From a virus (lineage: Duplodnaviria > Caudoviricetes): 64,000 bases of DNA. The stretch lies in IMG/VR virus record IMGVR_UViG_3300011989_000257, positions 32,001-96,000 of that record; one strand, given 5' to 3'. Within the stretch, counting starts at the first letter, position 1. The number at the start of each line of letters is the position of its first letter. This document shows positions 3,679 to 48,067 of the stretch, piece after piece. Position numbers and translations under genes: made by a program. A model generated the notes under the pieces. That model had not been told where the DNA came from, searched no databases, and worked only from the letters and a program-made list of their open reading frames with translations.

Positions 3679-4467
3679 TTATTCATTAATAAGTTCCCAC
3701 TTTACTTCATAATATTTTTTCTTATATATTTTCAAAGCATCCCTTATTTCCTTTGTATTCAATAATGTGGACTCTTTTAAAAAGAGTAGAATGGAACTCT
3801 TATTGAATTTATTACTTCCCATTTCCGCAAAAATATCATCCCAATTCGTCATTAGATTGATTAAAGTAGTCCCAACCTTAATTTCATTTTCAGTAAGCTT
3901 AAACCTTTCCTTGTCATTTAGAATCAACTTTATATTTTTAACAGTGCTACCAGTAAGTTCAGAAAGAAATGTTTTTCTAGGGTCTAAATCATCATAAGAA
4001 AATTTTAAACTATCATTAACATTCAAAGTCTCTTCTGAAGGACTATCGTATGACGAATTTCTCTTCTGAGTCTTTATAAACTGATTAATCTTATATATAA
4101 GATAATTCTTACATATTGTACCACAATAAGAATAAGCTTTATAGCCGCTATTAGGGTCGAAACATGATAGCTTGGTCATAAGGAACGACATTGTATCTTT
4201 AAATGTCTCATCAAATTCTTCATCTGGTGGATAAAGATTATACCTTCTTATGATTGATTCTATCATTTTCGTAAAGGCTGGTTTAAGTACCTCATTGAAA
4301 ATCTTATTCTTTTCTTTTTCATTGTCACATGAAATATAATCGGCAACAGCCTTTTCTTGTTCAGCACAAAAATAATAATTCTTTTTGTTTGGATTTGGCT
4401 TTCTACCTCTCTTTTTCTTTTGAGGCTCTTGAACAATAATTGTTTCCTCTGTCTTAACTTCTTCCAT
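3679..4467 (-). CDS. phage late-transcription sigma factor, T4 gp55-like
   Basis: NYYF N-terminal motif and sigma region-2-like segment FLMTKLSCFDPNSGYKAYSYCGTICKNYLI. Confidence 0.75.
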   Translation of the reverse strand: MEEVKTEETIIVQEPQKKKRGRKPNPNKKNYYFCAEQEKAVADYISCDNEKEKNKIFNEVLKPAFTKMIESIIRRYNLYPPDEEFDETFKDTMSFLMTKLSCFDPNSGYKAYSYCGTICKNYLIYKINQFIKTQKRNSSYDSPSEETLNVNDSLKFSYDDLDPRKTFLSELTGSTVKNIKLILNDKERFKLTENEIKVGTTLINLMTNWDDIFAEMGSNKFNKSSILLFLKESTLLNTKEIRDALKIYKKKYYEVKWELINE

Positions 4468-5099: not shown

Positions 5100-5243
5100 C
5101 TATGGTATATGTGCCACATTATTCCCATAATATAATGTAAACGTTTTAGTGAGAAAATGAAGTGAAAACCAATGGTTTTTCATCCAATCACACCCAATAT
5201 ACCACCAACTATTTGGGGCATTATAGCATCTTAATTTTATCAT
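5100..5243 (-). CDS. small aromatic-rich hypothetical protein (47 aa, below ORF-track cutoff)
   Basis: MIKLRCYNAPNSWWYIGCDWMKNHWFSLHFLTKTFTLYYGNNVAHIP*; fills the gap between 5088 and 5221. Confidence 0.5.
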   Translation of the reverse strand: MIKLRCYNAPNSWWYIGCDWMKNHWFSLHFLTKTFTLYYGNNVAHIP

Positions 5244-6354
5244 ATTTTTTTATCTCTTCTAAAAGTTTATCAGTGTTTTTAATTAATTGTTCACCTAAAA
5301 ATAAATCATAATCTTCGTGAGTATAATACAATATTTTAACGTTATGTTCTTTACAAAGTTCTTTTTTATTTTTATCTAATTCTTTTTGGCGTTTTAATTT
5401 CTTATTACCTCCCCAATTTTTCACAATGTCAAAATGCTGTATTCCTTGACATTCAACAGCAACATTATATTCTGGTAAATAAAAATCTAAACTTTGTAAA
5501 CCTAGCCAGTTAAATCTTTTTTGCCTTTCTACAATAAAAGACATTTTGTCAAAAAAACTATTTATTTCTTCTTCAAGCAAACTTTCTTTGCACATTGGAC
5601 AACCATTCCCATCTATATGACTAAATGGCCTCTGCCAGAATTCTCCGTGTTTTGGGCATATTATACACACTTTAGTTGTCGAATCCACATATTTAACTTT
5701 AGAATAATCGTATTTGTTGTTATGAACGATTTTGGATTGTTCAAGAAAATTATTGATTTTATTTTCTTTAATACAGTTAGGACAATTACCACCTTTCAAA
5801 TGAACAGTAGGAGTTTGCCAAAACTCACCGTGTTCTGGACAAATAATACAAACTTCTTTTTTACTGTGAATATATTCCACTTTTGAGTAGTCATATTTAT
5901 CTCCGTGAACTTCTTTGGCTCTATTTACAAATGTAGTCGTATCATATACTTTCTCATTGCATTTTTTACACCCAAAGCCATTTAAGTGTGAATAAGGAAC
6001 TTGCCAAAACTCACCGTGAACTGGGCATATTATACACACTTTTGTTCGGTTATTAATATAATCAACTTTTGAGTAATCATACTTATCACCGTGAACCTCC
6101 CTAGCCCTCCTTATAAATTCATCTTTTCCGTCTCTAAAAACATCACCCCTAGTTATATTGGCACACTTTGGACAATCTTGCCCTTTAAGGTGATTATGCG
6201 GTGTTTGCCAGAATTCACCATGTTTAGGGCATATTATGCATACTTTTTCATGCATTTTTTTATATTCTACTCTTGAGTAGTCATACTTGTCACCGTGAAC
6301 CTCCTTAGCTCTATCAACAAACTCTTTATTAGTAATTTTCCTTAACATAGACAT
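5221..6354 (-). CDS. free-standing homing-endonuclease-like protein: four Zn-ribbon repeats plus C-terminal PD-(D/E)XK/Vsr-like nuclease
   Basis: 4x HGDKYDYSKV.Y.....VCIICP.HGEFWQ.P..H..G..C..C repeats; C-terminal LDFYLPEYNVAVECQGIQH; own ATATTTAT motif at 6365. Confidence 0.8.
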   Translation of the reverse strand: MSMLRKITNKEFVDRAKEVHGDKYDYSRVEYKKMHEKVCIICPKHGEFWQTPHNHLKGQDCPKCANITRGDVFRDGKDEFIRRAREVHGDKYDYSKVDYINNRTKVCIICPVHGEFWQVPYSHLNGFGCKKCNEKVYDTTTFVNRAKEVHGDKYDYSKVEYIHSKKEVCIICPEHGEFWQTPTVHLKGGNCPNCIKENKINNFLEQSKIVHNNKYDYSKVKYVDSTTKVCIICPKHGEFWQRPFSHIDGNGCPMCKESLLEEEINSFFDKMSFIVERQKRFNWLGLQSLDFYLPEYNVAVECQGIQHFDIVKNWGGNKKLKRQKELDKNKKELCKEHNVKILYYTHEDYDLFLGEQLIKNTDKLLEEIKKYDKIKML

Positions 6355-6398
6355 ATTTTTATATATAAATATTAAATTAGTTAAGAAAAACCACCATT

Positions 6399-7190
6399 TT
6401 ACTCTGTTTTTTCGCCTTTAAAAATGAATTTATCTTTATCACGTTTAACACTTGGGTGAAACAAATATTCACGTTTTGCCAAATCAAACCACCACTGTGA
6501 TTCCTCACCACTTACAGTTTCCTTATAGATATTTACAAGAGAACCCTTTCTATCAAGGGTATGGTTATATCCAACCTTTGGAATGACGAATACTTTTTTA
6601 CCTTTATTTGTTAGACGAAGAAGCCACTCATACCAGAATGTAACTTTGATTGAAGGCTTTAACCCACCAACTTCTTGCCAATCCTTAATGTTGAATACCG
6701 AACCAGTTAGATAGAAATCAAAATAATTTCGCAAACAATCATGGTCAATATAACCAATCTCATTGGAAAAAGATGAAGCCCAAGCAGCCTCATTTCCGAA
6801 ACCTATATACTTTCCATTATTAAAGTCTGTAATATCCTCAAGAGTCATAAATACACTTGTATCTGGCATAAATTCCACATACTTCTTTACGTTCGGCAAC
6901 CAAATTGGTGTATACGTATCATCAAACTCAAGGATTGAGAACCACTTGAAATCATTTGCTACTGCATCTACAGCAGCATTTACAAGGTCAGCAAACGTTG
7001 TACCATCACCCTCTGAGATAATACGTAGTACACTGCTTGGAATGTTCTTAATCTTAGCCTCTGAAGTACCATTTGGTACTGAAAGACAAACTGTAACTCC
7101 CTCTGGAACACTTTTAATTGCCTTATTAGCAAGTTCTATATTTTCCTTACCAAATTCATGCATTGGTATTATCACTACTAGTTCCTTCAT
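6399..7190 (-). CDS. glycosyltransferase, GT-A fold (family 2-like)
   Basis: N-terminal LVVIIPMH, ILEFDD (DxD-like), WQEVGGLK, YEWLLRL...VIPKVGYNH. Confidence 0.7.
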   Translation of the reverse strand: MKELVVIIPMHEFGKENIELANKAIKSVPEGVTVCLSVPNGTSEAKIKNIPSSVLRIISEGDGTTFADLVNAAVDAVANDFKWFSILEFDDTYTPIWLPNVKKYVEFMPDTSVFMTLEDITDFNNGKYIGFGNEAAWASSFSNEIGYIDHDCLRNYFDFYLTGSVFNIKDWQEVGGLKPSIKVTFWYEWLLRLTNKGKKVFVIPKVGYNHTLDRKGSLVNIYKETVSGEESQWWFDLAKREYLFHPSVKRDKDKFIFKGEKTE

Positions 7191-7794
7191 TCTTTAACTC
7201 TTCTTTTTTCTTATTAATTATTTCATAAAGTTTATCTGTATATTTCTTCTTGATAACTTCATCATCCTCGTCTGGATTCTTAAACTTTTCTATAATCATT
7301 TCACTAACGTAATATACAGCCTCTGCTTCAAGGTCAACATTCGCATATTTCCTATGCCAAGGATAATTAGGGTCATCATGCGTAAGAGGATTTAACTTGT
7401 CTGCCAACTCGATAAAATCATTAGAATTAAAAATCTTACAATATTTTATAAATTTTTGGAAATCAAACTCATTTGGTTCTAAACAGCTAAGTACCTTCCT
7501 TGTCAAAGGAAATCCTACAGTTTCAAAAGAACCATCTTTCTTAAATAATCTATCTGTCTGGTCATCCTCACAAAAGATTAAAAAGATTGCAAGTTGTTCA
7601 TATGCATATGCCAATTCTTCCTTACGTTCTTCTGGAAATCCTTCAGTAAATCCCAATTGCGCCCATCTATCAGCAATTTGCTTTATTTTCTCATCAAGTT
7701 TACCACTTTTCTTTGCTTGAGCGTAAGTATGAATGCATATTCCCTTATCTGGATGTATATTCCCCACGCAACCACTTTCTAAAAATTCCTTCAT
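7156..7794 (-). CDS. truncated paralog of the major capsid protein (mini-MCP)
   Basis: Blocks MKEFLESGCVGNI, RWAQLGFTEGFPE, GSFETVGFPLTRKVLS and VDLEAEAVYYVSE align with the MCP at 43574..45604. Confidence 0.8.
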   Translation of the reverse strand: MKEFLESGCVGNIHPDKGICIHTYAQAKKSGKLDEKIKQIADRWAQLGFTEGFPEERKEELAYAYEQLAIFLIFCEDDQTDRLFKKDGSFETVGFPLTRKVLSCLEPNEFDFQKFIKYCKIFNSNDFIELADKLNPLTHDDPNYPWHRKYANVDLEAEAVYYVSEMIIEKFKNPDEDDEVIKKKYTDKLYEIINKKKEELKNEGTSSDNTNA

Positions 7795-7795
7795 A

Positions 7796-8875
7796 CTACT
7801 CCTTCTTAGATTTAACTTGTATTAATAACTCTTCCATTTCCTTCTTTCTCCTATCGAGAACATCTCTAATATAAGCCAATATGTCAGCCTTTGTACCGTC
7901 TTCAGTAAACTCATCGACAATCTTCTTGGTCTCTTCAGCAAGTATTGCTGGTACTTTATCAGTAATCCAAGAACGAACAACGCTTGCAATCTGTTTATGA
8001 AGGGTGTCATAGTCATTGAACCATACGCAACAATTTGGTAATTCATCACCACTAGCCCAATCGACAGTTGTTGTAGGTACTTTGACCATTGTGATACTTC
8101 CACTCTTCATTGCCTCAAGTGCTGAATACATAAAACTTGCAGTTTCATCAACAACAATTGTAATAGCGCCTTCTCTTAATTCCTTTGCAAACTCTTCTTT
8201 TGACAAGTTCCTAAGTTCCTTAAATGAAACCCACTTAAAATGCGGATATTTCCAATAGAATGGTTTAACAATCCTCTTAATATCACTCTGGTCTTTTGCA
8301 ATAACATTAATCACCATTTTCTTTGGCTCAATCGTAGTACCGAATATCTTTGAAATAAATGGTCTTACCTTCCTAAGTTTTACATAAGGAAAAGCCTCAT
8401 TAAGTTCTGCTGCTTGATAGTCTGAATTGGTAATACCCTCCATAATACCGAAATCACCCCATTGCGCAGCATAAGGCATCTGCTCAACCACATAGTCATA
8501 ATTCTGTAGAATTGCAACCTTCTTACAAGGAAGATTCCTTGTCTGATTCATGACTTGTGAGAAAATCTCTGGAATGAACAATACATCACTCGGTGATGTA
8601 CCAACCTCGCCTTTATTGACATTGTAATGTGGTAAATTGGTGTATTCCTCACCTAGCCATGCGCCAACACCAACAAATTCCTCTTCAGTATGCAGCATGC
8701 TGACATCATATCCTTCATTCTTTAAGATAAGTGCTAAATTGTAAATATATTCAAGCGAACCCGACGGAACACCTTTACTATCTATGACGAAGAAATATAT
8801 TCTGTTCTCTTTCTTATCTATCTTAGAAATCTCTTTCTCGATGTTTTCAATTACTTTTAAATCTTTATCACTCAT
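7796..8875 (-). CDS. glycosyltransferase-like protein, GT-B fold
   Basis: GSLEYIYNLALILKNEGYDVSMLH, DVLFIPE, DETASFMYSALEAMKSG (E-x7-E-like region with LEAMxxG). Confidence 0.65.
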   Translation of the reverse strand: MSDKDLKVIENIEKEISKIDKKENRIYFFVIDSKGVPSGSLEYIYNLALILKNEGYDVSMLHTEEEFVGVGAWLGEEYTNLPHYNVNKGEVGTSPSDVLFIPEIFSQVMNQTRNLPCKKVAILQNYDYVVEQMPYAAQWGDFGIMEGITNSDYQAAELNEAFPYVKLRKVRPFISKIFGTTIEPKKMVINVIAKDQSDIKRIVKPFYWKYPHFKWVSFKELRNLSKEEFAKELREGAITIVVDETASFMYSALEAMKSGSITMVKVPTTTVDWASGDELPNCCVWFNDYDTLHKQIASVVRSWITDKVPAILAEETKKIVDEFTEDGTKADILAYIRDVLDRRKKEMEELLIQVKSKKE

Positions 8876-9203
8876 TGCTAACTTCGTTTACATCTTTTAT
8901 TAATTCATATGCCTTCAAGGTATTAAGTGTTATACTTTGTCCCATAGATAAGACCTTTGGGTCATCAATGGAGTCAAGAATATCAATGAACATTCTAATC
9001 ATATCATAACGAATAGTATTTTGTCCAGTATAATCATTAACTTTAACCTCCTTCATTTCCCTTGTATTAGGTATCATTTTCTCTGTTTCCCTATCATAAA
9101 TAAAAGAGTCAGTTATCTCAACCTCATTTGTTTTATCATTTGGGTTGCCAAATATAAAACTTGTAATATTATCCAAATCAAAAATATATGATGTATTTGT
9201 CAT
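8868..9203 (-). CDS. hypothetical protein
   Basis: 111-aa ORF overlapping both neighbours in the operon. Confidence 0.65.
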   Translation of the reverse strand: MTNTSYIFDLDNITSFIFGNPNDKTNEVEITDSFIYDRETEKMIPNTREMKEVKVNDYTGQNTIRYDMIRMFIDILDSIDDPKVLSMGQSITLNTLKAYELIKDVNEVSNE

Positions 9204-9799
9204 CCTTTAATGTTTTTGAAAAAATTATTATCTTTTATGATGTCGCTCAAACTATTATAATTAAAATCTGCTTCATCCTTATGGATATTATTGAATTCTC
9301 GATTAATAAGAACAATTTTCTTCCCCTCTGGCTTATTCTTTTCAAAAAATTCATTTCTTGCAGTAATCACGACATCGCATTCGTTCCAAACTTCATCAAG
9401 ATTTTTAGGAAAAATAACTTTTCTTACTCTAGAACCAATTTTGCTCAAGAAGAAATAAGTGGATTGAATTGTCAATGCTACTTCATCCAAACTATAGAAA
9501 ATAATCCTAATTTCTTCATCTTCGATATTCTCAATTTCTGCTAACCAATTATTGATATCCCTTGGTAGATTTTTTTCAATTGCTGGACAAGCACCAAATA
9601 TCTCAAATGGGTAATCTATGTAAATAAAATTATTTTTCTGGTGCTTGCTCTCAAACTTCAAGTATTTATTAAAAATATCTACTTTATCATCCAAATCCTC
9701 CCATTCTAATGATGGGTCGAACTCTTTCGCATAATTCTTAAGAATCTGTCTGTTGATATTTCTAACGACATGATTCAATTCAATTCCAATTGTCAACAT
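9200..9799 (-). CDS. HAD-superfamily 5'(3')-deoxyribonucleotidase-like protein with degenerate motif I
   Basis: MLTIGIELNHVVRN matches NT5C-type IGIDxDxV with both Asp residues replaced; TYFFLSK; CDVVITA. Confidence 0.55.
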   Translation of the reverse strand: MLTIGIELNHVVRNINRQILKNYAKEFDPSLEWEDLDDKVDIFNKYLKFESKHQKNNFIYIDYPFEIFGACPAIEKNLPRDINNWLAEIENIEDEEIRIIFYSLDEVALTIQSTYFFLSKIGSRVRKVIFPKNLDEVWNECDVVITARNEFFEKNKPEGKKIVLINREFNNIHKDEADFNYNSLSDIIKDNNFFKNIKG

Positions 9800-13992: not shown

Positions 13993-14019
13993 AATTTTAA
14001 AATTTGTTAAGTTCTATTG

Positions 14020-14051
14020 CAAAGATATACAAAATTTGTTAAAATTCCAAA
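14020..14051 (-). promoter_or_regulatory. Bacteroidota primary-sigma promoter (TTTG-N20-TATCTTTG)
   Basis: Exact -33/-7 consensus; near-identical 37-bp copy at 19907..19943. Confidence 0.8.
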
Positions 14052-43573: not shown

Positions 43574-45604
43574 TTATCTGAACTCGTTAATGCTCCAATG
43601 TACAAGACCATCAACACGAACATGTCCAAAGTAACGGTTGTTCACCATCTTCTTCGCATAACGTGTCATAATACCCTTTACAGGTGCAAAGTTGAATGGA
43701 TTATACATAGTTGGGGTCAACTGCATTGGCACATATGGTGCATAGATGTAACCTGTGTCAAGAAGTGACTTACCCTTATGACCAATAATCATTGACCAGT
43801 GTGGGCTATATGGGTCACGATATACAGTGTAACGTCCACCGAGAGCACCAATCTTCTCAATACCCATGTTGTACTGGTCGCTTTCTGCTGATGCATCTGA
43901 TACATGGAAGTACTCAAGGTTATCAAGCAATGCTGAAATCTCTGAAGATACTACAATGAAGTTAGCACCACCACGAAGTGTAGACTTGTGAATCTGTGCA
44001 GAAATCTGGTTAATCTTAGTCATAAGCTCTTGGTTCCAGTCCTTCTGAGTGTAGTTAGTAGAGAAAGCAGCCATACGTCTCCAACCATTAACATCCCAAC
44101 GTGCCTGCCAAGGTGCGCCCTTACGAAGGTCACGGAGAATTTCACGGTCAATCTCAGCAGCAATCTGCTCTGAAAGGATAGCTGTCAACTCAGCCTCTGC
44201 GTCAATGTTGTGGAATGCAGAAACGTCTTGTGCCAACTCTGGTGACCATGTTGCACGAAGTTTTCTTTCCTCAACTGATACAGTTACTGAATCAAGCTTG
44301 AAGCTAACCTCACCGATTTCGGTCTCAAGCTCAAGTGAATCGTACTGTGCCCAAGCAATCTTGAAGAGCTGTGCAAGATTAGCCTTAGTCTCCTCAGTTG
44401 AACCGCTAGAAATAGCAGCGTCAAGAGCAGCAGCATCAACACCTACATAACCGTCAATTGTACCTGCTTGCTGAACAACTGGTTTAGCGAGGTCAAGCTC
44501 GATGTACATCTTACCCTCAGCATCGCAAGCAGCACCGTACTCTACGATACCCTTACCATATTTCTGAGTAACAACTCTGAAAGGAACTGACTCAAACTTA
44601 CGGAAAGCAGCAGTCTTAACTGTCTCTGAACCAGGAACATTAGCTGCTGGGAGTTCCTTCTGAGTAATAACCTTCAATGAAGCGAGGAATCCTTCAGTGT
44701 CCATTTCGTTTCCGTCAGGACCAGTCAACTTAGCAGCGTTGAATGAAGAGAAACCATCAATCTCAAGGATGACGTTACGTACAGTACCATCGAATCCACT
44801 CTTGAAGTACTTGTTAAGGTTATCAGCACCGAATGGGCGAACACCACCAGGAGTCAAGAACACTGGAATTGCGCTACCAACCTTGATAGTTACCTTACCC
44901 TTTGAGTTGTCATACAAGAAGTCGTTGTAGAACAAGTCGTAAAGTGACTTCTGGAAGTACTGAGTTACCTCAGGACCTGCTTGACGAAGAGCTGTTACAT
45001 GAAGACCCTCAGCCTCTGCACGTGCCTTAGCCTCATCGAAGCTAGTTGCATCTTCGATGGTCTCGTTCAACTGTGGAACGTACCATGAGTTCTTGTCGAG
45101 GTCATTGATTGTCTCATCTGGGAGATAGTATCTTGGCTCAACACGTCCTTCCTTGTTACGGTTAACTCTGTCATATCCCATAAGACCCTTATGACGACCA
45201 GTAGTACCATCAATGATATCACCTGGCTCTGTGCCACCAGTGTAATCTGCTGGGAGTTCCCACTCTCTCTCTGAAGTAACAGGGAGGATGAAGAACAACT
45301 TACCAACAGGAAGGTTCATTGCTTGTACTGAAACGATGTCGTTAGCAAGAAGTTTGCTGAACACACGTCTAATGATAGGGAAAACAACGGTCTCAAATGA
45401 ACCACTGTTATCAGAAGCAGTAGCCTCATAAATCAAGTGCTTTGCTTCATTCTCATACAATGTAGCAACATTCTCCTTGATACCCTCTGGAAGACCCTCT
45501 GTAAAGCCGAGGTTATCCCAACGGTTCTGAATGCTCTCACGTATCTGTTTTTGTGCGTTGTACTCAATATTGCCAACTACACCACTTGATAAAAATTCTT
45601 TCAT
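43574..45604 (-). CDS. major capsid protein, T4 gp23-like, with large insertion
   Basis: FPIIRRVF..LLANDIVSVQAM..PVG, RKLRATWSPELAQDV.AFHNIDAEAEL, GYIYAPYVP, GIMTRY; predicted maturation site IYE60/A. Confidence 0.95.
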   Translation of the reverse strand: MKEFLSSGVVGNIEYNAQKQIRESIQNRWDNLGFTEGLPEGIKENVATLYENEAKHLIYEATASDNSGSFETVVFPIIRRVFSKLLANDIVSVQAMNLPVGKLFFILPVTSEREWELPADYTGGTEPGDIIDGTTGRHKGLMGYDRVNRNKEGRVEPRYYLPDETINDLDKNSWYVPQLNETIEDATSFDEAKARAEAEGLHVTALRQAGPEVTQYFQKSLYDLFYNDFLYDNSKGKVTIKVGSAIPVFLTPGGVRPFGADNLNKYFKSGFDGTVRNVILEIDGFSSFNAAKLTGPDGNEMDTEGFLASLKVITQKELPAANVPGSETVKTAAFRKFESVPFRVVTQKYGKGIVEYGAACDAEGKMYIELDLAKPVVQQAGTIDGYVGVDAAALDAAISSGSTEETKANLAQLFKIAWAQYDSLELETEIGEVSFKLDSVTVSVEERKLRATWSPELAQDVSAFHNIDAEAELTAILSEQIAAEIDREILRDLRKGAPWQARWDVNGWRRMAAFSTNYTQKDWNQELMTKINQISAQIHKSTLRGGANFIVVSSEISALLDNLEYFHVSDASAESDQYNMGIEKIGALGGRYTVYRDPYSPHWSMIIGHKGKSLLDTGYIYAPYVPMQLTPTMYNPFNFAPVKGIMTRYAKKMVNNRYFGHVRVDGLVHWSINEFR

Positions 45605-45675: not shown

Positions 45676-47169
45676 TTATTTCATCATTCTGTGCATTAAA
45701 TCAAGAGATTCCATAACATCTGGTGACTTATAGATAGGTGTCTCATTGATTTTCTTTGAACCCTCAACTGTAAGACTCTTGTCCTCAGTGATGTTCATTT
45801 TGTTGGTTTTCTTGAGTTCACGACTGATTGACTCATAGAGTGCCTTTGATGCATCAATAGTCTTTCCTTCGTTCTTAAATCTGTTGATAATTTCTTTCTT
45901 CTCGTCTTGAGAAGTTGTATTCTCAGAAACCAACTTGATAATCTGTGCAAGATTATGATTAGTTACAGATACCTTCTTCAACTGCTCCATAAGGTCTGTC
46001 AATGTAGATTTAAGTTCCTTGTTTTCCTCAAGAACTGCATTCGCTCTCTTCATGAAGCTCTCGTTTGTCGGATTGCCTTCATACTCTCCTGCGGTTGAAA
46101 CATGATGCTGGTTCATTGGGGAATTCTTCTTTGCCTTAATAGGGTTATGAGATTTTGTTCCCATCATTCTTCCATGAGCACCCATTCTACCTCCGCATTC
46201 TGCTGCTGACTCTTCAAGATTCTCTTCCTCTTCAAGTTGTTTACCTTTTTCAGCATTGAATGGTTTATCTGCTTTATTTTTCTTACCTGGGTATCCAGAC
46301 CAAGGCTTCTCTGAGCCTTTTGGTACACCTGCATCCCAATCGTTTACATTTTTACCTGGCTCTGACATACCTGGATTTGTCATCACATCCTTTTTCTGAT
46401 AATTGTCAGTGTAGCCAACGTTTGAATCATACTCTAGTACGAGTTCAAACATCCTTTCTGTTGATTCATTCATATCATCCATGTCATTATTAAAATCATC
46501 TTCTGCACCGAAATCATCAGCACCTTTGTCATCAGTGAGAACTGTGTCATCACTTGGTTCAGATGCTGCAACACCAGTTGCTTCACCCTCATCGTCAAGC
46601 TTGATTAGGTACTCAGCTCCAGTTTCATTGTCTTGAATGTTCACATTTCCGCTGTCATCTTTATGTACAAGGATTTGGTCATCATTCTTCATTAATTTGT
46701 AAACCTTTACGATTTCCTCGTCTTCCGCATTTGTAAAGTCATACTCATCGTCTGATACCTTATATTTATCAAACTCTGCCCAGTCATCGCCACCTTCGCC
46801 TTCAACTGCTCCGTCATCGATAGATTCTCCTTCAGCAGCACCATCAGTATCTGACTCGCCACCTTCGTTTTCTCCACCTTCTACATCGCCTTCTGAAGAC
46901 TCCATCCCAGTGTCTGCGGATGCTTGACCATCGTCAATAGCATCGCTAGATTCTGCATCGTTTGTAATATCAGAACTAGTATCTTCCACTTCACCCTCTT
47001 CGTAGTCCTTGTCATCGTCCTCAGACAATAACTTGGCATATGTATCACGCACAGCCTCACCCAAAAGAGCCTTGACTGCGCTCTCAGTATTTTCCTTCAA
47101 AGAATTTGCGAGTGTGTTGTAATCCAATAAAGATTCTCTAACTACTTTGCTTCTAATATTTTTGCTCAT
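45676..47169 (-). CDS. prohead scaffold/core protein (gp22-like position), highly acidic
   Basis: Directly upstream of MCP; acidic disordered middle, C-terminal coiled coil, many (I/L/V)xE sites. Confidence 0.7.
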   Translation of the reverse strand: MSKNIRSKVVRESLLDYNTLANSLKENTESAVKALLGEAVRDTYAKLLSEDDDKDYEEGEVEDTSSDITNDAESSDAIDDGQASADTGMESSEGDVEGGENEGGESDTDGAAEGESIDDGAVEGEGGDDWAEFDKYKVSDDEYDFTNAEDEEIVKVYKLMKNDDQILVHKDDSGNVNIQDNETGAEYLIKLDDEGEATGVAASEPSDDTVLTDDKGADDFGAEDDFNNDMDDMNESTERMFELVLEYDSNVGYTDNYQKKDVMTNPGMSEPGKNVNDWDAGVPKGSEKPWSGYPGKKNKADKPFNAEKGKQLEEEENLEESAAECGGRMGAHGRMMGTKSHNPIKAKKNSPMNQHHVSTAGEYEGNPTNESFMKRANAVLEENKELKSTLTDLMEQLKKVSVTNHNLAQIIKLVSENTTSQDEKKEIINRFKNEGKTIDASKALYESISRELKKTNKMNITEDKSLTVEGSKKINETPIYKSPDVMESLDLMHRMMK

Positions 47170-47359
47170 TTAGAAAATAGATTTAATACATTATTTTTTA
47201 ATATAAATATAGATTAAATACCAAAAAAATTCATAAAATGCCTAAAATAATACATTTATGAGCAATTTATGACTTATATTTGATATCTAATTAATAAATA
47301 TTTGGATGAGAATGAATATTTATAGTAAATTTAAAAATAAAAACTATATATTTGCAAAT

Positions 47360-48067
47360 ATGATGAAACAGGATAATTTAGAAATAATAAAGGAAGGAAA
47401 AACAGGACATGGCATACTAATTGAAAATGATGGTTTCATATCATTGGATTTTGGTAAGAATAACCATCAGTTGAAAGAGGATATTAGTGAAAAAGGATGG
47501 TTTGTGCCTTACCCATTTGTTGTGGATGCTGTATTTCAGAAATTTGGAATTAAAAATGCAAACGGTAGAATTTACCCAGAGTCAATTCTAAAAAGAGAAG
47601 TTGAAAAATACCAGAATATGATTGCAGAAAGGATGGCGTTGGGAGAACTAAACCATCCAGCAGAGTCAACAATCGACTTGGGTAGAATAGCAATCAATAT
47701 TGTTGAACTTCATTGGGAGGGAGCTACTCTAGTAGGAAAGCTTGAAATCAACACGACTGAAGGATTTAGAAAGTATGGTATTGTAAGTACTCGTGGTGAC
47801 GATATGGCTAATCTTATTATAAATGGATATAAAATCGGTGTATCATCAAGAGGTGTTGGTTCTGTTGAACAAAAACTTGGACAATATATCGTAGGGGATG
47901 ACTTCGAACTTATATGTTGGGATGTAGTATCAAGTCCATCTACGCCAGGAGCCTATGTAGGAAAACCAGAGGAATTGCAACAATATATTGAAAGTAATAC
48001 TAGTAATAGTGACAAGAATTCAATTAATGAAAAGATTAATAAGATTAAAAATATCCTAAAGTCATAA
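47360..48067 (+). CDS. prohead maturation protease, T4 gp21-like
   Basis: KNANGRIYP, LGELNHP, IGVSSRGVGS, DFELICWDVVSSPSTPGA; start reassigned to ATG 47360. Confidence 0.9.
   Translation: MMKQDNLEIIKEGKTGHGILIENDGFISLDFGKNNHQLKEDISEKGWFVPYPFVVDAVFQKFGIKNANGRIYPESILKREVEKYQNMIAERMALGELNHPAESTIDLGRIAINIVELHWEGATLVGKLEINTTEGFRKYGIVSTRGDDMANLIINGYKIGVSSRGVGSVEQKLGQYIVGDDFELICWDVVSSPSTPGAYVGKPEELQQYIESNTSNSDKNSINEKINKIKNILKS

Follow-up and report, generated by a model that had tools for sequence, protein, structure and literature searches.

The protein mini-MCP (P0001, 212 amino acids), encoded between two glycosyltransferase-like genes of an uncultured T4-like phage of 412 kb, is a partial paralog of the phage's own Gp23-type major capsid protein (MCP; P0002, 676 amino acids), to which, by sequence comparison, it is homologous in two colinear blocks. 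The gene lies in the window studied here, a stretch of 64,000 nucleotides that corresponds to bases 32001-96000 of the 412,514-bp IMG/VR record IMGVR_UViG_3300011989_000257, rated complete by CheckV. The G+C content of the window is 34.5%, and T4-like head and tail genes are present, including those for a terminase, a portal, a prohead protease, an acidic scaffold-like protein, the Gp23-type MCP and a tail sheath. We conclude with high confidence that mini-MCP is an accessory, fast-evolving and shell-incompetent derivative of the inward-facing N-terminal module of the MCP. As to function, we tentatively favor that of a soluble mimic of this module, made before the late genes, which may serve as a competitor or decoy toward an external, variable partner in a conflict. 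The two genes and their homologous segments are located as follows.

7156..7794, minus strand: mini-MCP gene, P0001, 212 amino acids (open reading frame (ORF) listing and translation)
7468..7794, minus strand: mini-MCP residues 1-109, copy of MCP residues 1-89 (BLASTP, hhalign, hidden Markov model (HMM))
7279..7347, minus strand: mini-MCP residues 150-172, helix homologous to the MCP spine helix, with DxEAE motif (family HMM)
7156..7190, minus strand: 35-nt overlap of the mini-MCP gene with the downstream gene (sequence)
43574..45604, minus strand: parent MCP gene, P0002, Gp23-type, 676 amino acids (Pfam PF07068, E 2.5e-73; aligns to T4 gp23)
45296-45604, minus strand: MCP N-terminal block
44138-44230, minus strand: MCP spine helix

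Homology of mini-MCP to the major capsid protein

The first homologous block comprises residues 1-109 of mini-MCP, which align with MCP residues 1-89 at 43% identity (BLASTP, E 3e-17). When an alignment of 50 family sequences was compared with the MCP, hhalign returned a probability of 98.8% (E 1.3e-16, 51% identity over 84 columns). The block covers the propeptide helices, the cleavage-site region and the start of the N-arm helix (FETxGFPxxRK), and is interrupted at about residues 14-35 by an insert of 15-22 residues that is specific to mini-MCP. Aligned with T4 gp23, it corresponds to residues ~4-110, i.e. the propeptide helices, the maturation-cut region and the residues after it. The second block is formed by residues 150-167 and matches MCP residues 464-481 (NIDAEAELTAILSEQI), part of the spine helix; the pairwise match is weak (E 0.17). 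A family HMM built from 179 sequences gives two colinear matches on the MCP, to residues 1-103 (i-E 1.2e-27) and to residues 459-489 (i-E 0.034, conditional E 1.8e-5), and its search against all 3,783 ORFs of the 412-kb genome retrieved mini-MCP and the MCP only. The same two-part colinear match was found in each of 11 other MCPs, which are 50-84% identical to P0002, with E-values for the spine helix between 1e-3 and 6e-3. The initial annotation had already described a 212-amino-acid ORF at this position that matches the MCP in ordered blocks and resumes the match after some 380 skipped MCP residues; both statements hold, the skipped stretch measuring about 374 residues.

The segments without counterpart include those that build a capsid shell. 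The complete HK97 fold, with its E-loop, P domain and A domain, is not present in mini-MCP, in agreement with the earlier statement that the protein keeps the propeptide and a helical part of the MCP and is without the insertion and the C-terminal shell-forming part. The Pfam Gp23 profile did not match mini-MCP at E <= 0.1. At the maturation site, mini-MCP reads LIFCE|D and the MCP LIYE|A, so that, as had been noted, there is no exact IYE|A; some members of the family's type A have lost the glutamate, and type-B relatives carry LI(T/C)E|A. Residues 93-122 of T4 gp23, which we take to be the Gol segment, the trigger of Lit, align with MCP residues 71-101. The proposed link to this segment therefore stands as far as the MCP is concerned and in part for mini-MCP: the latter retains ETVGFPLTRKVLSCL only, the first ~14 residues, and then departs from the MCP sequence LANDIVSVQAM, which makes it an incomplete Gol mimic.

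Within the blocks that align with the MCP, the family has 28 best-conserved positions, and by a manual reading of the alignments 24 of these carry the same residue in the MCP. Recent gene conversion between the two genes was considered and rejected, identity at third codon positions being only 18-24% in the long blocks; a raised value is seen in the first 13 codons alone (8 of 13), which are too few to weigh. As the origin of mini-MCP we propose duplication of the MCP gene followed by internal deletion.

Fragments of MCP genes were also met elsewhere. In a relative (G002, IMGVR_UViG_3300021256_000001, about base 250,400), a 49-codon ORF (L021:1471-1620, minus strand) encodes MCP residues 1-35 at 94% identity and continues into unrelated sequence. 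Its distance from the MCP gene of G002 is 176 kb, and it represents a recent duplication of part of the MCP gene, at the 5' end. As this ORF shows, MCP 5' fragments arise repeatedly. A separate observation concerns the large insertion of the MCP, part of which (MCP residues about 255-396) is 26-28% identical to a protein of ~511-524 amino acids. This protein is encoded in the 412-kb genome outside the window (G000 300001-300195, minus strand), with homologues at G003:247285-247698 and G001:106394-106807; perhaps the insertion domain is a module that the MCP has in common with another kind of protein, such as one of decoration type.

Predicted structure

The AlphaFold2 model of mini-MCP, calculated from the family alignment, consists of some ten helices packed into a compact bundle (predicted local distance difference test score, pLDDT, 87.7; predicted template modeling score 0.84). 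It is all-helical except for two short strands of two residues each, and disorder is confined to the last eight residues. The MCP-derived and mini-specific helices pack in one globule, and the protein is therefore a single fold rather than a detachable tag on a cargo domain. By this prediction mini-MCP is one self-folding, soluble helical globule that is unable to form a shell.

Structure searches with the model yielded little beyond the MCP relationship. Foldseek against the PDB returned nothing at E <= 0.001, and the best match of a wide VIA-align search reached Z 6.2, with helical proteins including sigma factors, which is under the noise level for helical bundles. In BFVD the sole meaningful match was an uncharacterised Myoviridae protein of 166 amino acids (33% identity), probably itself a member of the mini-MCP family. 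The Atlas contained one related cluster only, which consists of Gp23 N-terminal fragments, and an Atlas feature search gave nothing.

A large and variable family

Two sets of homologues were collected. A word-indexed search gave 50 full-length homologues of ~200 amino acids and 36-95% identity, on contigs of up to 430 kb. When a full profile search was run over 1.8 billion cluster representatives, 418 clusters were retrieved at E <= 1e-3; of the best 150, about 125 reach into the middle region specific to mini-MCP. By these searches mini-MCP belongs to a large, undescribed family of mini-MCPs. P0001 has no match in Pfam, PHROGs or NCBIfam, and ten distant family members have none in PHROGs; tblastn with P0001, P0203 and P0231 against 50,697 phage records, megablast with the mini-MCP locus, and the family profile against PDB sequences likewise gave no match. 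Most members have 120-200 amino acids, some are tandem doubles of 345-382 amino acids, and P0263 (389 amino acids) has a longer architecture with an additional MCP-like block. Mini-MCP carries the signature of the family: a length of 120-220 amino acids, the motifs W..GF.(E)GL, FP..R(R) and D.EAE, and a mini-specific middle region with F....F..Y. One position, W44, is invariant across the wide family, and F95, P96, R99, D154 and E156 are nearly so, all of them being shared with the MCP; the motifs specific to mini-MCP are F.F..F.KYCK and, in the near clade, D..I(C).H.Y.

Mini-MCP is the most variable and fastest-evolving gene of an otherwise conserved block. In eight syntenic IMG/VR relatives it is 32-65% identical to the copy in the window, compared with 71-92% for the flanking genes; for the MCP and the scaffold these values are 92-94% and 73-91%. 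The extreme case (L041) has flanks of 82% and 66% identity around a mini-MCP of 25%. When two allele types were compared, the MCP-like segments were the best conserved (45-63%), the linker and mini-specific parts being 9-39% identical. For pairs with unsaturated synonymous divergence, the ratio of nonsynonymous to synonymous substitution rates (dN/dS) is 0.13-0.25 for mini-MCP and 0.03-0.17 for the flanks, which indicates purifying selection, relaxed or partly diversifying, and not decay. The possibility raised with the initial annotation, that the gene is a decaying fragment free of purifying selection, thus does not apply. Between two relatives (L004 and L008), identity is about 100% for 5.7 kb upstream; at the nucleotide level it then falls to 47-59% across mini-MCP and is 78-90% in the next gene, a pattern that marks a recombination breakpoint at the mini-MCP locus. 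One locus (L032) contains three mini-MCP units in tandem.

Genomic context and expression

The mini-MCP and MCP genes start about 36-38 kb apart, close to the 36 kb given before. The immediate neighbors of mini-MCP and the motif at the head of the operon are listed below.

7796..8875, minus strand: upstream neighbor, 359 amino acids, GT-B-like glycosyltransferase (profile of 9 relatives against PDB 8xsg, E 8.2e-8)
6399..7190, minus strand: downstream neighbor, 263 amino acids, GT-A-type fold, EFDD motif (AlphaFold2 model with pLDDT 66, and Foldseek)
14018..14029, minus strand: TATATCTTTGCA, containing a TAnnTTTG Bacteroidota-type -7 element (shared upstream motif)

PDB 8xsg is the glucosyltransferase AmGGT (PMC12159676). 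Foldseek matches of the downstream neighbor (E 4e-9 to 1e-7) include WrtF, the glycosyltransferase domain of BcsA and AvpGT, and also KdsB-type cytidylyltransferases. A Glyco_tranf_2_5 gene and an IMPDH/GMP-reductase-like gene lie farther up the operon. The described tight coupling of mini-MCP between two glycosyltransferase-like genes was confirmed: its start codon follows the upstream stop after 1 nt, with AAGGAG 5 nt upstream of the ATG, and its 3' end overlaps the downstream gene by 35 nt.

This overlap explains a feature that could be mistaken for a functional motif. The last 11 residues of mini-MCP, NEGTSSDNTNA, are almost invariant while the rest of the protein falls to 36% identity, because their codons are shared with the start of the downstream gene, where they encode MKELVVIIPMH, the first strand of the predicted GT-A-type fold. 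The overlap is retained in the syntenic relatives, with 35 nt in seven of eight and 56 nt as called in the remaining one (L006); another relative (L030) has neither the overlap nor the tail. The pLDDT of the tail is below 50, and NEGTSSDNTNA has no further occurrence in the genome. A docking motif or glycosylation site was therefore rejected in favor of an overprinted start of the next gene. Caution is needed more generally, since a gene overlap can make a peptide tail look invariant.

All eight syntenic relatives have mini-MCP between the 359- and 263-amino-acid genes, and GT-B-like and GT-A-like genes flank it at no fewer than 11 related loci (>= 11). A separate set of 11 large relatives, picked by MCP alone and including seven complete genomes, contained no mini-MCP gene, and in all nine of these more distant relatives that were examined the two transferase genes directly abut. 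Mini-MCP is therefore a lineage-specific insertion, needed neither by the transferases nor by T4-like head assembly; by its distribution mini-MCP is an accessory gene, dispensable in relatives. Family members also occur in other surroundings, one in a baseplate module (L028) and one beside an amidase/peptidoglycan-binding gene of endolysin type (L042).

The late motif ATATTTATW stands ahead of nearly every structural gene, that for the MCP included, and is absent from the minus strand between 6372 and 11250, so that mini-MCP has no late motif of its own, as originally stated. TATATCTTTGCA is probably a host-type promoter from which the operon spanning 13992 to 6399 is read. The missing late motif and the host-type motif at the operon head make pre-late expression plausible, and mini-MCP is probably expressed before the late genes. 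More generally, the motif TATATCT(T/A)(T/C)(G/A)CA with the Bacteroidota -7 consensus TAnnTTTG, a candidate early promoter of host type, occurs in four minus-strand copies in the window (14029, 17400, 19919, 37807) and 31 times in the genome, and hints at a Bacteroidota host.

Several other genes in the window deserve mention. For the 199-amino-acid operon gene at 9200-9799 (minus strand), assignment as a STING protein was rejected: the sub-threshold matches to the prokaryotic STING domain PF20300 (E 3.3e-4) and to NF050171, the STING region of Cap12 (E 4e-4), appear in only one of 16 relatives and are probably due to chance, and the family profile of this gene found nothing in the PDB. A 377-amino-acid protein encoded at 5221-6354 (minus strand) contains four treble-clef repeats of the type GDKYDYS...VCIICP.HGEFWQ (DUF4379/DUF723). 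A late-type motif belonging to this gene stands at 6372, its slot is occupied or empty depending on the relative, and the gene looks like a mobile insertion of the homing-endonuclease type. A 262-amino-acid protein (3679-4467, minus strand), encoded beside the block in all relatives, shows a weak match to Sigma70 region 2 (E 0.006) and may be a phage sigma factor. The scaffold-like protein (45676-47169, minus strand), with no match in PHROGs or Pfam, has a long Asp/Glu-rich N-terminal half and a C-terminal tip, SLDLMHRMMK, that is invariant in five genomes. The prohead protease is encoded at 47306-48067.

Comparison with known systems

Mini-MCP shares with T4 gp23 (PF07068, HK97 fold) the homologous propeptide helices, the cleavage-site region, the start of the N-arm with the beginning of the Gol segment, and the spine helix. 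It differs from gp23 by being without about 374 internal residues (E-loop, P-domain strands and insertion domain), the whole A domain and the C-terminus; it is, moreover, a predicted soluble helical globule, encoded outside the head module and without a late motif. The vertex protein gp24 of T4 is likewise an MCP paralog kept in the same genome; unlike mini-MCP, which is shell-incompetent and accessory, it is a late-expressed, full shell subunit of the HK97 fold.

The internal proteins IPI-III and Alt of T4 resemble mini-MCP in having an N-terminus similar to that of a head protein, a possible L/I-x-E site and a hypervariable locus. Their capsid-targeting sequence, however, is ~10 residues long and common to several cargo proteins, whereas mini-MCP copies ~100 MCP residues within one fold. 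In the 412-kb genome, the N-terminal tag MKEFL.SG.VGNI occurs in the MCP and mini-MCP only and is thus not a shared cargo tag. T4 gp61.1 (54 amino acids) and the prohead protease inhibitor Inh of T4 were considered as relatives and rejected. Comparison of gp61.1 with the family of the 212-residue mini-MCP revealed no detectable homology, with an hhalign probability of 3.7% and only MK.FKEF aligned, and for Inh the probability was 0.2%.

Contacts between scaffold and the coat N-arm are found in P22 and 80alpha, and SaPI1 CpmB is a small helical accessory protein at this coat N-arm/scaffold interface. CpmB is satellite-encoded and mimics the scaffold side; mini-MCP, by analogy, would be a phage-encoded mimic of the coat side.

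Possible functions of mini-MCP

In the model that we tentatively favor, mini-MCP would copy the part of the MCP that faces the prohead interior, i.e. the propeptide helices, the cleavage-site region, the N-arm start and the spine helix. Within one sub-lineage of T4-like phages of about 300-400 kb, it would have entered the junction of two glycosyltransferase genes of an early operon, to be made ahead of the late genes. It would display the conserved surface of the MCP N-terminus (RW..LGF.EG, EQ.A, FET..FP..R, D.EAE) to a factor whose normal target is unassembled MCP, and compete with the MCP for access to this factor. The partner would most likely be external and variable, a host sensor or effector keyed to the nearly invariant MCP N-terminus. 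In the best 120 of 7,940 matches, the N-terminal 110 residues of the MCP show 95-100% identity, so that this target could not easily mutate away from recognition. Several defence systems are triggered by capsid proteins (reviewed in PMC13728456). The hypervariability, allele exchange, tandem amplification and dispensability of mini-MCP, set against the invariant MCP N-terminus, fit a conflict gene better than a conserved assembly part, and a decoy would be the reading that best matches the evolutionary pattern, in which the MCP-like motifs are conserved while the gene is hypervariable. The narrower proposal is rather doubtful: here an early-expressed and rapidly diversifying decoy would occupy host immune sensors, or other factors recognising unassembled capsid protein, in a phage unable to alter its invariant MCP N-terminus.

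Several points weigh against mimicry of the MCP module. Of the segment equivalent to Gol, mini-MCP retains about 14 residues only, and a mimic of a trigger could switch a sensor on instead of blocking it. Rapid evolution and patchy distribution would also suit a dispensable assembly accessory or a gene under relaxed constraint, and the conserved residues shared with the MCP may serve fold stability alone. The pre-late timing is deduced from promoter-like motifs only, one family member (L028) resides in a late baseplate module, and both the partner and the host defence system are putative.

Of the rival explanations, a role in head assembly or as cargo and a new function outside mimicry are equally possible, each being somewhat unlikely. 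As a head-assembly accessory, mini-MCP would use the copied module for scaffold contact to bind the scaffolding core or the prohead protease of its own phage. It could be co-assembled as a core or cargo protein of the prohead, with possible cleavage at the LIxE|A-like site and ejection; alternatively, it could titrate the scaffold and thereby tune the timing of head assembly or the size of the head. The first ~105 residues of T4 gp23 lie inside the prohead, where they are thought to touch the gp22 core, and include the head-length mutations A66D, A94V and G97S (PMC9546572), which speaks for such a role. The position of T4 G97 aligns with the near-invariant FP motif of the family, the LI(T/C)E|A of type-B relatives resembles the LIYE|A of the MCP, and L028 is found among late genes. 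That T4 internal-protein loci are hypervariable too is in line with a cargo function. An essential assembly role is weakened by the 11 MCP-selected relatives, all of which have the same MCP type and presumably the same head-assembly genes but no mini-MCP. The site is degraded to LIFCE|D in P0001, and the glutamate is gone in some type-A members. The late motif is absent, and none of the remaining proteins of the genome has the MKEFL N-terminus. Divergence to 39-62% identity, where the scaffold keeps 73-91% and the MCP 92-94%, would also be an odd rate for a protein that partners with conserved machinery. A function newly gained and unrelated to mimicry, such as that of a regulator or an enzyme partner, would leave the MCP-shared residues with the task of holding the fold. 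The packing of MCP-like and mini-specific helices in one compact globule, the conserved motifs F.F..F.KYCK and, in the near clade, D..I(C).H.Y, and the lack of fold matches in PDB, BFVD and Atlas beyond Gp23 N-terminal fragments are consistent with it, but family-wide these mini-specific motifs are far less conserved than W44, F95, P96, R99, D154 and E156, which are shared with the MCP.

Two further explanations are improbable. Mini-MCP as an adaptor or substrate that ties the flanking glycosyltransferases to the capsid protein is highly improbable. The strict bracketing by GT-B-like and GT-A-like genes and the translational coupling on either side suggest such a link; however, the abutting gene pairs of the nine distant relatives show that the transferases work without mini-MCP, the members L028 and L042 lie far from any transferase, the Ser/Thr-rich tail is accounted for by overprinting, and the flanks are 66-92% conserved where mini-MCP drops to 25%. 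It is also very improbable, if marginally less so, that mini-MCP is a functionless or near-functionless remnant held open by its translationally coupled operon. Its very rapid evolution, its dispensability in relatives and the occurrence of MCP 5' fragments such as the 49-codon ORF would be compatible with a remnant, an explanation that the evidence on selection and distribution has largely refuted: unsaturated pairs give dN/dS values of 0.13-0.25, ORFs remain intact and full-length down to 25% identity, the family comprises 418 clusters of which most of the best 150 include the mini-specific part, the fold is confidently predicted from the family alignment, and the gene has been amplified in tandem. 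The interpretation offered by the initial annotation, which comprised a decoy, a modulator of head assembly and an adaptor, is thus partly supported, in that a cut-down paralog, purifying selection, probable pre-late expression and a glycosyltransferase setting are found, while the adaptor idea is weakened by the nine abutting transferase pairs.

Implications

The libraries and literature searched contained no phage counter-measure built from a cut-down capsid protein. If the decoy proposal is true, mini-MCP would stand for a new class of anti-defence protein, made by trimming the trigger itself. With hundreds of clusters, hypervariable sequences and the position of an accessory insertion in an early operon, the family offers natural proteins for testing the capsid-decoy idea, and its members could also be used to probe the MCP N-terminal module and its engagement with the scaffold in very large T4-like heads. 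The mini-MCP gene itself is a clean case of the reuse of a structural gene as a soluble accessory protein.

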